Below are positions 3,008 through 57,221 of a stretch of 64,000 bases of DNA, piece by piece (positions within the stretch are counted from its first letter, which is position 1; the number at the start of each line of letters is the position of its first letter). Under the pieces are notes generated by a model that searched no databases, was not told the DNA's origin, and worked only from the letters and a program-made list of their open reading frames with translations. Location of the stretch: assembly GCA_964016885.1 (NCBI GenBank), contig OZ024743.1, positions 90,830,001 through 90,894,000 of the forward strand, written 5' to 3'. Position numbers and translations under genes: made by a program. This DNA is from Eledone cirrhosa (lineage: Eukaryota).

Positions 3008-3219
3008 TTAAATTTTTTTCGTACCTGTCAGTTTATAATCTTTATCACTCCAAAATATTGTATCTGTACAAATTTGAATGTTGTAGTCTTCCGCCCAAAC
3101 AGTATATATTATATGGAAGCATAGTCGTAAATTTGTTTTCTCAAAATACTTCAATTTCATAAAGAAATGGAATTTGCGAAACTGTAGGTATAAGGACATT
3201 CTCCTCATCTCTCCAGGAT
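3008..3219 (-). CDS. Gene A probable terminal exon 4 (secreted Cys-containing protein)
   Basis: Acceptor ttttccattcattcacag|AT is phase 1, matching exon 3. Open frame [10 protein letters not shown]...[38 protein letters not shown], with AATAAA downstream. An alternative phase-1 donor exists at 3025|3024. Confidence 0.6.
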
Positions 3220-3240
3220 CTGTGAATGAATGGAAAATAA

Positions 3241-3735
3241 TTATATATATATATAAATCTATATATATATATATATATATATATATATATATATATATAT
3301 ATATATATATAAATGTATGTATATATATATATTTATATGTGTATATATATATATATATATAAATGTATGTATATATATATATTTATATGTGTATATATAT
3401 ATATATATAAATGTATGTATATATATATTTATATGTGTATATATATATATATATGCATGTATATGTATATATATATATGTATATATATATATATGCATGT
3501 ATATGTATATATATATGTATATATATATATATATGCATGTATATGTATATATATATATATGTATATATATGTATATATATGTATATATATATATATATAT
3601 ATATGTATATATATGTATATATATGTATATATATATATATATATATATATATATATATATATATGTATATATGTATATATATATGTATATATATATATAT
3701 ATATATATATATATATATATATATATATATATATT
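3241..3735. repeat. (TA)n/(TATG)n microsatellite
   Basis: Seen directly. Confidence 0.95.
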
Positions 3736-3834
3736 AATATATCAGTACATGTATATATATATAAATATATCAGTACATGTAGATGGCGTAGGACAGAACA
3801 AAGGAGAGGCACAAAACAAAGAAAAGAATCTCCA

Positions 3835-3877
3835 GTCACTGAAGAGGTCACAGAATGTGTGACGAAAGAACTTTGAC
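3835..3877 (+). ncRNA. Minimal type I hammerhead ribozyme in a short dispersed element (3781-4065)
   Basis: gtca-CTGAAGA-g-gtcaca/tgtgac-GAAA-gaac-TT-tgac. A second copy of the element lies at about 47007-47270. Confidence 0.7.
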
Positions 3878-4138
3878 AATATATGAACAACCGTCCGGTT
3901 GTGGAACCAACCAACCAACCGGAAATTTATAAATATTTAAAAAATAAAAAAAAACATTAAAAAAATTTTTTTTTTGAAAAGATTTTTGATTTATAATAAA
4001 TTGAAGTGAAAGTAACTGGTGCGTGTGTTTCTTATTGGCAACATGACCCTCTCAAAGTATAACAATATATATATAAATATAAATATATCAGTATATGTAT
4101 ATATATATATATATATATATATATATATATATATATAT

Positions 4139-4978
4139 ATATACTATAAAGTATGTCCATAGAATCATTTGATAATATATATACACCATTTCCTCACCCA
4201 ATTAGCATAATTAACCGCACAAAACATCAATTAGACCAGGCTATAAGATTAAAAGGCACCTATGAAGAAATAGTAGATAAATAAACGACAGCAATCTCTT
4301 CGCGACCAACCGCTATAGAATATTTACCCAACATTTCAATAGCACGTGGAAATCGATTAAATATACCGTCAACCACACACAATTAGGTATAAAATTAAAG
4401 TTAGAAGAAAAAATGCATATACACATACCAGGGTTACGTTTCTACCCTTAGGGTTTCGTTCGCTCTTGGAAATATCCTATTAAGGATAAAATCCCGAGCT
4501 TCGAACTCATCAGGAAACAAACTCATTTGGACAAAGAATTTTCATAAGTAATTCCCGCCAGAAACGAATTCAAAATGGCTAAGAACTGTGACGTGGCAGT
4601 GGTAAAGTCAGAAAGAATGTGATTGGTTGCTTACGGCGAGTGGGCTGGTTGCTAGAAAGCGCAGCCCAATATTGCCTAAATTGCATCTCAACCTTATGGA
4701 AGATTATTAAATATAAAGATTTACATATACACAAACTAGACAAACTCAGATATATATGTTTTGGCAACCATTCACGATGTGGCTCAATGATGAATTAATA
4801 AATTAAATAATCAGAGCAATATACTATAAAGTATGTCCATAGAATCATTTGATGATATATATACACCATTTCCTCTCGCAATTAGCATAATTAACCACAC
4901 AAAAAAATCAATTAGACCAGGCTATAAGATTAAAAGGCACCTATGAAGAAATAGTAGATAAATAAACGACAGCAATCT
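4139..4978 (-). mobile_element. Non-autonomous hammerhead element with about 160-bp terminal direct repeats (period about 680 bp), PLE pseudo-LTR or retrozyme-like
   Basis: 4139-4297 is repeated at 4819-4978. It is flanked by (TA)n and (TG)n, contains an internal hammerhead and has no ORF. Confidence 0.7.
4438..4518 (-). ncRNA. Type I hammerhead ribozyme
   Basis: Minus strand: gtttc-CTGATGA-long stem II (gttcg...cgaac)-GAAA-ccctaaggg-TA-gaaac. Confidence 0.85.
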
Positions 4979-5547
4979 AGTGTGTGTGTGAGTGTGTGTG
5001 TGTGTGTGTGTGTGTGTGTGTGTGTGTGTGTGTGTGTGTGTGTGTGTGTGTGTGTGTGTGTGTGTGTGTGTGTGTGTAAAACGACAGCAATCTAGTGTGT
5101 GTGTGTGTGTGTGTAGCGTTCTCCAGATAAAGGGAAGTAGCTGGAGTTAATTCCCGTTGAATTCTAGAGGATTCCTTGAACTTCCATCTAGGGATTATAA
5201 AGGAGGGAGAAAAGAAGCATCTTGGCTTTTTTGGCAACCGGCTCTCGGACAGTTCACTCACGAGCGAGTTTGTTATAATCTTGTTATATCTATATCGAAT
5301 TAAATTAGTGGTTGGCCTGCAGTGGTGTTTACCAAAGTAAATAAGCCTGTGACCAACTCACTAAGTATGTATATATATATATATGTGTGTGTGTGTGTAT
5401 ATATATATATATAAGTACATATATATATGTATATATATATATATATATATATATATATACACACACACACATATATATATGTATATATATATAGAGAGAG
5501 ATAGAGTGTATATATGTATATATATACATATATATATATATAGTATA

Positions 5548-5970
5548 CTAGCAGTGATACCAGGCGTTGCACGGGATAAGGTATTTTGGAACACGGGCCG
5601 CCAACAGACCTAATCGTGGAAAAACTGCATGCCTGGACAATATGTAAAGTAAATAAACCGAATACTCGGATGGCAGGATAATCTTTAAGATTTTACTCGA
5701 TGAAGCATGAAAAATGCAGGATTTCACCTAATGCAGGCCCTAGGGGATGTGTATAATATGCCTTGAAATTTCGGGAAAAATCGGCTAGACTTAACGCCTC
5801 AAAAAAGCCCTAAAAAGCTGAAAAAAAATGAAGTGTTTCACCTAATGCGGGCCCTAGGCCATAACAAAGTTGGATTTTCTTTGCTTACGGTATGAAGAAG
5901 AGACTGACTAATACATAGTTACAATTTCAAGGAAATCGGTCTGACGTAACGCCTCAAAAAACTCTTACTT
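5548..5970 (-). mobile_element. Non-autonomous Helitron 3' end (the 5970 boundary is uncertain)
   Basis: Minus strand ends cccgtgcaacgcctgg...CTAG|T, similar to the Helitron end at 27687. Confidence 0.55.
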
Positions 5971-54672: not shown

Positions 54673-55349
54673 GTATATATGCATGTAGATATGATACATC
54701 AAATATAATCGTAATTGACAATATACACAGAAATTGAACGAAGACTGCGTTACACTGTCTTATGTAATCAGTAACGTAATCCATGATACATTAAAAAAAG
54801 ACGATATTATATATAAACTGCATTAGGAGAAAATTAGTGACGGAAATATATGAATGTTTATTTAAGCGATCGCTAACCGTAAGTGTTGACATTTGAAAAT
54901 TTTAAAGAAGTGAATCTTTAACTAAGCAATAAAATATATTTAATCAAAAGCTACGAAATTTGGTAGATAAATTATGTAATATTCATTCATTATTTATTCA
55001 AAATAATCAAACTTATTTTACTAATGGGATAACAAATTATATTCTGGATGCAGTCCCACACTCCTTACTTCATTAAAGTTTAGATCCTACACTTCACTCC
55101 ATGCTCTACTGCTCACTGTGCTCTATTTAGGTGTGTCTCTGATCATTCCTTTATCGATCGCCTCCAGCCCTATCTGAGTCCTTGCAATATCATTTCTGCA
55201 AATGATTTCCAATGACTGCCATAACACAGATAGGGATTCATTTAAAATAACTTCTTTGTTATGTAGGGGAGGGCATGTTTTTTTTTTGAAAAACAAGCAA
55301 GTGACTATGACGTGTGGCGAATTGGCTGAGTCGTTAGAACGTTCTATAG

Positions 55350-55642
55350 CAGTGGTTCCCAACTTCTTGTGCACCATGCCCCACCCAACATCTAAAAAAT
55401 TGTTATCTCCCCCTTTGACATGAAAACAGCAATAATCAACTGCAAAGTGTAAACAAATTGGTATAAGTGGTGCCAAATACAAAATAACATGGAGGTGAGA
55501 CAGGGAGTTTCTGACAGTAATGTGTACCAAAGTTGCCTTGGTATAAAAGTAATAAAGTAAAACCTGAAGTTTTTTCTCATTGACATCATTTTCAAATGGT
55601 CCCCTTAAATATTCAAATTGCCATATTGGGAATCACTCACTG
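55350..55642. mobile_element. hAT-type MITE inserted into a tRNA SINE (about 55315-55770)
   Basis: TIR cagtggttcccaa / ttgggaatcact(cactg); 8-bp TSD ttctatag/atctatag. Confidence 0.75.
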
Positions 55643-56235
55643 ATCTATAGATTACTTAGAGGTATTCGTTCCGGCTCTCTGTATTCTTTGAGTTCATTTC
55701 CTGCAGAGGTCAGTCAACTTTGTCTTTCAGCCTTTCGATGTCGAAAGAATAAATGTACTGGGGTAGATACTTCCTCTATATCTCTTTCTCACTTCTTCAC
55801 TGTTACCCTCTCTCTCTCTCTCTCTCTCTCTCACTCTCTCTCTCTCTCTCTCTCTCTCTCTCTCTCTCTCTCCTTCTGGAGAGAGTGTATGGACTCTGCT
55901 GTGTTTAACGTGCCTATGACGCGCCGTATATCACGATGGATCCCCTACGATTATATCAAGGATTACGGGTACAAGAAAGAAGAGAAAAGGACCCTGAGCG
56001 AGAAAAATGAAAGAAAAGAAGAAAAGAAAAGAAAAAAAAAACGTTATGACGACAATCCTCCAAAAGCAAAGAAAAATTTGAAAATAATTATATTTAAACA
56101 AATAACTGTTCCTTCTAAATATGATCCTGCATATTTTCAATGCTATTTTAATTAAGTAATTTCCTATAATACCTATCCTGAAGAAAGTGTTTCTGTTACT
56201 CCGTTTCCAATGTTATATCTCTGAAACCACAGCAC

Positions 56236-56265
56236 ATAAACGGAAATAAATAAATACTATAAATA
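56236..56265 (+). promoter_or_regulatory. Candidate core promoter of gene B
   Basis: ATAAACGGAA followed by TATAAATA, conserved with gene A. Confidence 0.55.
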
Positions 56266-56361
56266 CTTCATACAAATTTTACCGATTCACTTTCTACATT
56301 TTGATTCTTTTCTTGCTAACAAGCAAACCTCTGTCGAGTTTTGAAGAAAATACAAATCAAG

Positions 56362-56452
56362 ATGAAGGTGATGAATGTAATATTTTACCTGGCTCTAATG
56401 TTCTATCTAGGAAGATGTGTCGTTGTGAAAATGGAGTCTCACTTAACTGAAG
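56362..56452 (+). CDS. Gene B exon 1 (signal-peptide-like)
   Basis: MKVMNVIFYLALMFYLGRCVVVKMESHLTE G|gtaagt. Confidence 0.82.
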
Positions 56453-57002
56453 GTAAGTAATGCTTAACCCCCATACAGAAGATACGAAGGTCAGTTCAAA
56501 TGCTCATAAGTTGACTAAGGCACTCTCATGGAATGACCAAATAAGGTTTATTTTTCAACATTGTCCCTAGAAAGAAATAATGCCAATATTAATAGGAAGA
56601 ATTGAAATTAATGCATGCAAGGTTTCACAGCTCTAGCATCACTCCTTCATAGTCAGCCTATGAACCTTTCAGCCCTCTATCGTAAGTGCTGCTTGACACA
56701 AACAGACACGGACACCCACTCACGGCGAGATGCACGCACACACGCACTCACAGGGAATCGCAAGCACACACACACACACACACACACACACACACACACA
56801 CACACACACACACACACACACACACACACATACGGACACACACACACACACATACGGACACATACTCACATCGGACAAAACTTTTTGCGGTTTGATAAAA
56901 TAAAGTACCAGTTAAGTACTGGGGGTCAGTATAATCAACTTTTCCCACCCCAACCCTAACTTGTTGAACTTATAACTAAATCAGAAACAATTATATTTAC
57001 AG

Positions 57003-57221
57003 ACGAAACTGCTGCAGTTAAAAATATGTTGGATGAAATGTTTGAAAAGATCCAGGTTAAACGAATGATCGAGAATAACATAGCAGATATCGAACCTCAA
57101 AGCGAACAATTGATTACCGAAGATCCCGAAAATAGTGAATTACAAAATGCAGGCAGAATGAGCTGTAGTTGGAGGAAAAATATAGGAGATTGTTGTGTAT
57201 ATCTAACAAATTTGCCGAAAA
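57003..57221 (+). CDS. Gene B exon 2
   Basis: tatatttacag|AC ... AAA A|gtaagt, 219 nt, phase 1-1. Acidic region followed by SCSWRKNIGDCCVYLTNLPK. Confidence 0.82.

Follow-up and report, generated by a model that had tools for sequence, protein, structure and literature searches.

Does a repeat-laden stretch of the Eledone cirrhosa genome hold two real genes and, if so, to what kind of protein family do they belong? The stretch considered here (the window) comprises 64,000 nucleotides (nt), C4:90830001-90894000, where C4 denotes contig OZ024743.1 of the 3.0-Gb genome; positions are given on the scale of the window unless prefixed by C4 or C2. It was initially annotated as containing a hidden, divergent pair of paralogous genes for secreted Cys-containing proteins, here named A (minus strand) and B (plus strand). 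Our reading, to which we assign a probability of roughly 80%, is that A and B are head-to-head four-exon genes of an octopus family, predicted to encode secreted proteins of ~190 amino acids (aa) with a C-terminal, Cys-containing all-beta domain that is likely a diverged relative of DUF4773 with a reduced Cys content.

Two 91-nt first exons with phase-1 GT donors are indeed found in opposite orientation, at 47476-47386 and 56362-56452 (Table 1). Comparison of the window with itself aligns 47373-47529 with 56465-56303 at 83.4% identity over 163 columns (E 5.5e-42), the shared block consisting of the 3' half of the 5' untranslated region (5'UTR, ~55 nt), exon 1 and ~13 nt of intron. The exon-1 peptides are identical at 21 of 30 positions, in agreement with the similar signal-like sequences described by the initial annotation, and the upstream motifs it listed as common to both genes, ATAAACGGAA and TATAAATA, were located at each. 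The composite pattern GGAWRTA-N9-TATAAATA matches the window only at the two gene promoters, compared to 0.01 matches expected, and two matches were reached by 0 of 100 shuffles. Exon 2 of either gene follows a pyrimidine-rich AG acceptor, runs to a phase-1 GT donor and contains C-x-W-x4-G-x-CC, which a six-frame reading of the window yields exactly twice (minus strand, 41585-41553; plus strand, 57164-57196). Exon 2 had been described as ending in this motif; the motif is present in both genes, but as it is located 9-10 residues ahead of the donor, it lies near the end of the exon rather than at the very end. The proposed contrast between a conserved signal exon and a diverged exon 2 is evident from A-B identities of 70% and 25%, respectively.

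Table 1. Coordinates of genes A and B, of the gene clusters of the family and of retroelements in the introns of A and B.
Feature	Position	Strand	Details
Gene A core promoter motifs	ATAAACGGAA 47631-47622, 12-nt gap, TATAAATA 47609-47602	minus	ATG 126-133 nt downstream
Gene A conserved 5'UTR part	47477-47529	minus	belongs to 157-nt block common to A and B
Gene A exon 1, coding part	47386-47476	minus	91 nt, predicted signal peptide, phase-1 donor GTAAAT
Gene A exon 2	41525-41719	minus	195 nt, phase 1/1, acidic linker then C-H-W-x4-G-x-CC
Gene A exon 3	33143-33226	minus	84 nt, phase 1/1, begins one codon ahead of Cys
Gene A exon 4	3008-3219	minus	212 nt including stop 3010-3008; family terminal exon type (L-x-L-C-F ... 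C-T)
Gene B core promoter motifs	ATAAACGGAA 56236-56245, TATAAATA 56258-56265	plus	ATG 97-104 nt downstream
Gene B conserved 5'UTR part	56303-56361	plus	
Gene B exon 1, coding part	56362-56452	plus	91 nt, predicted signal peptide, donor GTAAGT
Gene B exon 2	57003-57221	plus	219 nt, phase 1/1
Gene B exon 3	C4:90896844-90896927 (window scale 66844-66927, outside window)	plus	84 nt
Gene B exon 4	C4:90898298-90898491 (window scale 68298-68491, outside window)	plus	194 nt
Cluster 1	C4 90.83-90.95 Mb		A (minus), B (plus), H (plus)
Cluster 2	C4 225.68 Mb		C
Cluster 3	C4 336.69-337.07 Mb		I, G, F, E, D and two extra last exons
Long terminal repeat (LTR) retrotransposon in B intron 2	57521-61678	minus	young; 249-nt LTRs, 99.2% identical
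Long interspersed nuclear element (LINE)-type open reading frames (ORFs) in A intron 2	34223-37712	minus	endonuclease, RVT_1, zf-RVT
Reverse transcriptase and endonuclease ORFs in A intron 3	11048-12187, 15590-16912, 23683-24762		

Gene A extends from 47476 to 3008 (44.5 kb), a size that is due to introns of 5.7, 8.3 and 29.9 kb containing retroelement ORFs, a short interspersed nuclear element (SINE) and microsatellites. The in-frame model put forward for it (91+195+84+212 nt over 44 kb, 193 aa) is borne out: exons 3 and 4 have AG/GT boundaries, and splicing of the four exons yields an open frame of 582 nt. Exon 3 contains an A-R-Y-P motif that is shared with paralogs C, D and E, the C-terminal tail can be aligned with that of paralog C, and an AATAAA at 3008-3003 overlaps the stop codon. 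An alternative donor within exon 4 (CAG/GTACGA, ~3024) was dropped, as all paralogs and public homologs terminate in that exon. Exons 3 and 4 of gene B are located 2.8 and 4.3 kb past the end of the window, and AATAAA motifs are present ~35-55 nt 3' of its stop.

The linkage of exon 4 to the remainder of gene A across a 30-kb intron had been regarded as the weakest step of the model. Gene models were tested by the order, strand and phase of the exons in paralogs. Seven copies of the exon-1 module are present genome-wide, and an eighth, more diverged copy (H) was found locally, 40 kb downstream of B. In C, D and E, a relative of A exon 2 follows exon 1 on the same strand at a distance of 10-11 kb, and paralog exons 2 reach their phase-1 end a few residues past the Cys motif. 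Exon 3 measures 84 nt in C and 81 nt in both D and E, with the same TTTTCAG acceptor, GTAAG donor and A-[RK]-Y-P sequence. Among the three genome-wide matches of A exon 4, the sole non-self match that is free of stops is located 5 kb downstream of C exon 2, and the phase-1 acceptors and the stops occupy corresponding places in the terminal exons of C, D and E. The terminal exon of the paralogs can thus be described as a phase-1 acceptor, L-x-[LIM]-C-F, a second Cys 16-18 residues on and a stop soon after. A hidden Markov model (HMM) of the A, C, D and E terminal exons retrieved the last exons of G (E 1.6e-4) and B (E 4.6e-4); following addition of these two, it also retrieved the last exon of H (E 2.1e-7). 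Candidates for exon 3, prefiltered on acceptor, donor and complexity, numbered 3 in B, 7 in G, 14 in H and 26 in F; the exon was picked from these by eye for its good splice sites and matching peptide start.

Six intact spliced frames, all with AG/GT boundaries, were obtained: A (193 aa), B (195 aa), C (180 aa), D (185 aa), E (185 aa) and H (183 aa). All six are built from four common exon types whose order, strand and phase do not vary. The family plan consists of an exon 1 of 91-97 nt (plus 5'UTR), an exon 2 of 171-219 nt that encodes a linker plus C-x-W-x4-G-x-C(C), an exon 3 of 81-87 nt and an exon 4 of 167-212 nt, with all introns in phase 1. Because the paralogs keep this plan, and public full-length proteins (see below) hold all parts contiguously, the joins to exons 3 and 4 of gene A stand, and linkage across the 30-kb intron is supported.

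The paralogy of A and B proposed at the outset is confirmed by a family of at least nine loci with a common exon plan, arranged in three clusters that are all on contig C4. By their mature parts, the members form two subgroups, {A, C, D, E} (subgroup 1) and {B, F, G, H} (subgroup 2), a split with support of 100/99, and a clade of A and B is rejected for the mature parts by the approximately unbiased test (p-AU 0.0016). The subgroups are nevertheless homologous to each other (hhalign 97.65%, E 2.6e-12), with a score reached by 0 of 120 shuffles. H is a third intact gene of cluster 1, encoding 183 aa on the plus strand at C4:90926352-90947008 (window scale 96352-117008); it retains ATAAACGGA but has an altered TATA box. 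Last exons of the G/F type have ~60 extra codons past the stop point of B (L036:9141-9488, L060:4590-4940 and L061:4451-4801). The resulting acidic tail is open in each of the three, and recurs in homologs of 241-244 aa from O. sinensis and O. vulgaris.

To place the family among public proteins, a seven-sequence profile of the last exon was used in an exhaustive HMMER search of 1.84 billion representative proteins (E <= 0.001). Six proteins were matched. Five of these are family proteins of 163-244 aa that match at their C-terminal ends (E 7.6e-13 to 8.7e-7), and their clusters bear the names of Octopus sinensis, O. bimaculoides and O. vulgaris proteins labelled uncharacterized or hypothetical. 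The sixth, a 2315-aa protein with a CHU_C domain, was taken as spurious. Named homologs are LOC106872506 and LOC106876287 in O. bimaculoides, LOC115218395, LOC115218502 and LOC115227065/6 in O. sinensis, and CAI9731753.1 and CAI9731747.1 in O. vulgaris. The homologs and the family have 13 invariant columns in common, including six Cys and the W. LOC106872506 and its relatives resemble A and B in type of signal, acidic linker, C-x-W-x4-G-x-CC motif and overall length, as well as in the exon-3 Cys, C-F and G-C motifs, and the public full-length proteins hold the family exon parts contiguously. Identity is 63% between the last exon of H and LOC106872506 (E 5e-24) and 49% between B exon 2 and an O. 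sinensis protein (E 8e-20), with A exon 4 reaching 29% against the best of the public homologs compared. C, D and E differ from the Octopus homologs in that the second Cys of the CC pair is lost along with the exon-3 Cys.

Two cluster members derive from Logan contigs whose lengths (954 and 911 nt) leave no room for kb-sized introns. These contigs hence likely represent spliced transcripts, so that homologs of A and B are likely expressed. The signal-peptide strings of the family were found in no paper, and a literature search returned nothing on the family. The idea of a lineage-specific family fits these data, given that all five family proteins among the 1.84 billion are from Octopus according to their cluster names. 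The description of the genes as hidden is appropriate only with respect to this genome, homologs having already been annotated in other octopuses. A and B are new, divergent members of an already annotated but uncharacterized octopus family.

The N-terminus of the predicted proteins carries a K at position 2, ahead of a hydrophobic stretch of 12 uncharged residues at positions 6-17 (mean hydropathy 1.8-2.2) and G-R-C-A. Judged by sequence reading rather than by SignalP, this N-terminus appears to be a cleavable signal that is too short for a membrane helix, in line with the secreted-type N-terminus initially proposed. Residues 31-80 are acidic (8-14 D+E versus 2-5 K+R), and the predicted mature proteins have a mass of 18.7-20.6 kDa with 1-3 N-x-[ST] sites each. 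An AlphaFold2 (AF2) model of the O. bimaculoides homolog contains nine consecutive beta strands within residues 81-183, with a predicted local distance difference test (pLDDT) score of 72-86 per 10-residue block, while residues 1-73 are of low confidence. A Foldseek search of the PDB with this model gave no match at E <= 0.001 (best E 0.03, template modelling score 0.24-0.34); up-and-down beta proteins such as avidins, fatty-acid-binding proteins and lipocalins appear in the weak list and were not counted as evidence. The last exon of H searched against the ESM Atlas had a best score of 0.84, with low recognition and no lead.

Conservation is concentrated in the signal module, with the mature part diverged. 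The promoter, 5'UTR and signal exon (the 5' module) are 64-86% identical among paralogs, compared to 14-38% for the mature parts; for A and B, the values are 85% at the nt level for the module versus 19% at the aa level for the mature part. Within A-B exon 1, the proportions of synonymous (pS) and nonsynonymous (pN) differences are 0.23 and 0.12, compared to 0.62-0.75 and 0.46-0.68 in exons 2-4. Identity of the 5' module (A-B 85%, D-G 83%, F-G 86%, A-C 74%, A-D 77%) tracks chromosomal neighbourhood, not mature subgroup. This suggests the module may have been exchanged between neighbouring genes, which would be allowed because all internal exons are symmetric (phase 1-1).

For the mature part, the youngest pair is D (C4:337.055-337.070 Mb) and E (C4:336.963-336.978 Mb), a recent duplication with copies ~92 kb apart. 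Their non-coding mismatch is 0.44% (97 of 22,180 aligned columns), from which 2.4 differences are expected in the coding sequence. Nine are observed (Poisson P ~0.001), all of them nonsynonymous and all located in codons 101-182 of 185, corresponding to the Cys domain. The D-E pair suggests that the Cys domain evolves fast, probably under positive selection. Both proposals are tempered by other comparisons. In a tree of the 5' module, support for A+B is 82/84 and a rival grouping is not rejected (p-AU 0.125), hence exchange between neighbours is suggested only; in older paralog pairs, the ratio of nonsynonymous to synonymous substitution rates (dN/dS) is 0.45-0.9 with dS saturated, and does therefore not demonstrate positive selection.

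A conserved signal exon combined with a hypervariable mature part is characteristic of conotoxin superfamilies and of frog skin peptide precursors. The A/B family resembles these in having a conserved 5'UTR and signal exon (including synonymous sites), fast divergence of the mature part, a signal exon that precedes a long intron, and genes in tandem or dispersed clusters. It is unlike them in that the mature domain comprises ~160 residues rather than a short peptide, and no conserved propeptide cleavage site was seen in the A/B family. The likeness is one of analogy, and membership is not claimed.

DUF4773 (PF15998) is, to our knowledge, a widespread invertebrate secreted domain with no known function. 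Its profile has 12 matches in the genome, with canonical genes at C2:143.33-143.36 Mb and C4:115.05 Mb that have homologs in Octopus and Gigantopelta; the last exon of the C2 gene is 94-95% identical to proteins named by their sources as Octopus sinensis and Argonauta hians. DUF4773 was the sole Pfam family to match full-length homologs of A and B (4 of 10; 14.7-17.7 bits, E 0.005-0.044), over a region of up to HMM positions 2-112 of 118, and one source names a homolog cluster 'DUF4773 domain-containing protein'. An hhalign comparison of the spliced B, G and H domains with six canonical sequences yielded a score of 28.95 (E 2.7e-4, 106 columns) that was reached by 0 of 668 column shuffles, with the reversed query scoring 11.9. 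Subgroup 2 (B, G, H) was chosen after the scores were known, the canonical profile consists of six sequences, and profile-profile comparisons as a whole gave mixed results.

Both the family and canonical DUF4773 proteins are of secretory type with a C-terminal, beta-rich Cys domain of ~115 residues. The spacing from the first Cys to the CC pair is the same, and the alignment is collinear at six Cys. The six canonical positions retained by the family comprise the first Cys, both Cys of CC, that of exon 3 and another two in the last exon, the register of the last two being ambiguous. The full ten-Cys frame, C-x-C-x4-C-x-CC ... C ... NPP-x-C ... C ... C ... G-C-F, is not found in the A/B family: the second Cys is replaced by W and the third by G, while the NPP-x-C Cys and the next Cys are missing (4 of 10). 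Gene structure offers a further comparison. The canonical gene at C4:115.05 Mb has a phase-1/1 exon of 93 nt whose start lies one codon ahead of the Cys aligned with the family exon-3 Cys, followed by a phase-1 last exon as in the family, and the second canonical gene shares the last intron. In the alignment of B, G and H with the canonical sequences, the first intron falls in the same column, while the second is one column off, beside a gap. Differences extend to the N-terminus, with a short cleavable-type signal in the family versus a long N-terminal anchor and 190-residue spacer in canonical DUF4773, and to conservation, the canonical last exon being 94-95% identical across octopods versus at most 63% in the family. 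An upstream Cys-motif exon of the C4:115.05 Mb gene was not found within 20 kb, and a PDB sequence search with the DUF4773 alignment gave only a chance match (E 0.45). The A-R-Y-P-x-L-L-C of subgroup 1 was considered as an equivalent of NPP-x-C and dropped, as the alignment is not significant and conflicts with the exon plan. If the alignment is right, the family has lost these four canonical Cys and, in C, D and E, also the second Cys of CC together with the exon-3 Cys, which suggests pairwise loss.

Whether these similarities reflect descent must be weighed against the possibility that the family is real but unrelated to DUF4773, i.e. an octopod orphan with Cys spacing and intron phases that arose by chance or convergence. 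Several results weigh against kinship. None of the family loci is among the 12 PF15998 genome matches, single exons of A, B, C, D and G have no DUF4773 match up to E 10, and the gathering cut-off of 27 bits was reached by 0 of 10 full-length homologs, six of which have no DUF4773 match at all. By hhalign, the score of all seven members against the canonical set is marginal (15.4, reached by 6 of 150 shuffles), and no signal is seen for subgroup 1, including gene A (61 of 120 shuffles reach the score; P 0.47). The comparison is not significant for eight public homologs (P 0.28) or for the last exon alone (P 0.062), the latter aligning in a different register. NPP-x-C and four of the ten canonical Cys are missing, and the AF2 model of a canonical DUF4773 protein (mean pLDDT 35) is too poor for fold comparison. 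An orphan would, however, have to match the same sole Pfam family four times over nearly the whole HMM, attain a subgroup-2 score that no shuffle reached, and present six collinear Cys together with an intron whose column and phase agree with those in a canonical DUF4773 gene from this genome, in addition to the source name given to the homolog cluster. We consider such an origin unlikely. The family is probably distantly related to DUF4773, with odds of ~3 to 1 from these sequence comparisons, and the loose resemblance first pointed out can be retained as probable distant kinship (sole Pfam match) but not as membership by the Pfam rule, given scores below the cut-off.

A separate set of observations counts against A and B as intact members of the family. 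The mature part of gene A contains an odd number of Cys (seven), and in the pieces compared A and B are only 29-49% identical to the listed Octopus homologs, with no close ortholog. Word-based protein searches with B exon 2 and with an eight-sequence exon-2 alignment found no homolog, a blank that proved misleading because the exhaustive search later found homologs. A search of sequencing runs listed no RNA run that carries the sequence, and three runs of unlabelled kind carry 0.73-0.77 of the words, introns included, and thus look like DNA. Decay is evident in part of the family: the exon-1 donor of G is lost, exon 2 of I is frameshifted, and F either has its last exon 32 kb off or lacks one, the exon there belonging to another copy. 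A and/or B could thus be unexpressed relics, young pseudogenes with frames that have not yet decayed in a family active elsewhere, a view to which the broken state of G, I and perhaps F and the odd Cys number and 38 kb of retroelement-filled introns of A lend some weight. In both genes, the ATG context, all six splice sites, the open reading frame, the TATA box and the poly(A) signals are nevertheless preserved, and with A/B divergence of ~80% at the aa level, chance openness of 193-195 codons is not expected in such old paralogs; we give relics only a small chance. That A exons 3 and 4 are those of a different gene, or that exon 3 is a chance open segment in what is a two- or three-exon gene, might be argued from the 29.9-kb intron 3, from the length of exon 3 (a multiple of 3, so that the frame is kept if it is skipped) and from the 34 open 84-nt AG..GT segments between A exons 2 and 4. 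This is very improbable in view of the same exon types following exon 2 in C, D, E, B, G and H with order, strand and phase alike, and of the public full-length proteins that contain all three parts contiguously. Apart from those of B and H, the region C4:90.81-90.93 Mb contains no further exon 1 or 2 of the family, and family exon HMMs detected no second copy of any exon type in the 67-kb region of gene A. It is harder still to credit that the recurring 5' module and exons belong to a transposable element, despite a window dominated by retroelements. The module is present in 7-8 copies only, each with family exons after it, when true repeats here number thousands, and no transposon domain was found in any family exon or homolog, a match to a transposon product having been named beforehand as a refuting result. 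We conclude that A and B, as modelled by comparison with their paralogs and homologs, are real genes.

The window surrounding the exons of A and B consists mostly of retroelements and simple repeats (Table 1). The LTR retrotransposon in B intron 2 has minus-strand ORFs for a gag zinc knuckle, reverse transcriptase, RNase H and integrase. A tRNA-Ser(GGA)-like sequence at 43310-43382 (plus) in A intron 1 is the head of a SINE, with 2463 candidates in the genome and scored copies that are 89-98% identical. A intron 3 contains a perfect inverted repeat at 7771-9941 with arms of 1075 nt (7771-8845 and 8867-9941) that are 100% complementary and separated by a 21-nt spacer; it is made of 310-nt tandem units and could be a palindromic satellite or an assembly artefact. 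In the same intron, an ORF at 27755-28522 (minus) that runs over a 69-nt tandem repeat (28186-28465) matches Pfam STPRs (PF21107) with 29.8 bits (cut-off 27). The segment 14001-18000 has a G+C content of 0.58-0.60, a G over C skew of 0.55-0.69 and many overlapping frames, with a weak RVT_1 match only. Microsatellites make up a visible share of the A introns, including a 1.4-kb (TA)n array at 24796-26202 and others of 0.1-0.6 kb.

If A and B are secreted members of this family, the proteins would enter the secretory pathway with the signal being cut near G-R-C. An acidic, partly helical linker would then carry a disulfide-bonded beta domain of ~110 residues, which would bind an extracellular target. 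This domain would evolve fast, as expected in a secretion or surface protein (mucus, saliva, haemocytes or reproduction), because the extracellular partner changes, while the 5' module would be exchangeable between neighbours via the phase-1 symmetric exons. DUF4773 proteins are described in octopus skin mucus (PMC11431876), DUF4773 is listed among the top transcripts of secreting locust pleuropodia (PMC6966819), and it serves as a marker of an oyster haemocyte cluster (PMC12064177).

The find is real but fairly ordinary, and opens no long-standing question. It illustrates that a 44-kb gene riddled with transposons was assembled correctly by reading raw sequence only, and that such a gene model can be validated against paralogs without RNA data. 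It adds two divergent members and a census (at least nine loci in three clusters on one chromosome-scale contig) to an octopus family known as 'uncharacterized', and tentatively links that family to DUF4773. Two evolutionary leads arise, a fast and probably adaptive change of the domain and a local homogenisation of the signal module. In its most far-reaching form, which we put forward tentatively and consider rather doubtful as a whole, the family would be an octopod-restricted offshoot of DUF4773 that shed two disulfide pairs (three in one branch), is under recurrent positive selection, and has a promoter-signal module homogenised between neighbours through recombination within the phase-1 first intron. 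If this were true, the family would be a cephalopod counterpart of the toxin and defence superfamilies with conserved signal and hypervariable mature part, acting in mucus, saliva or haemocytes.

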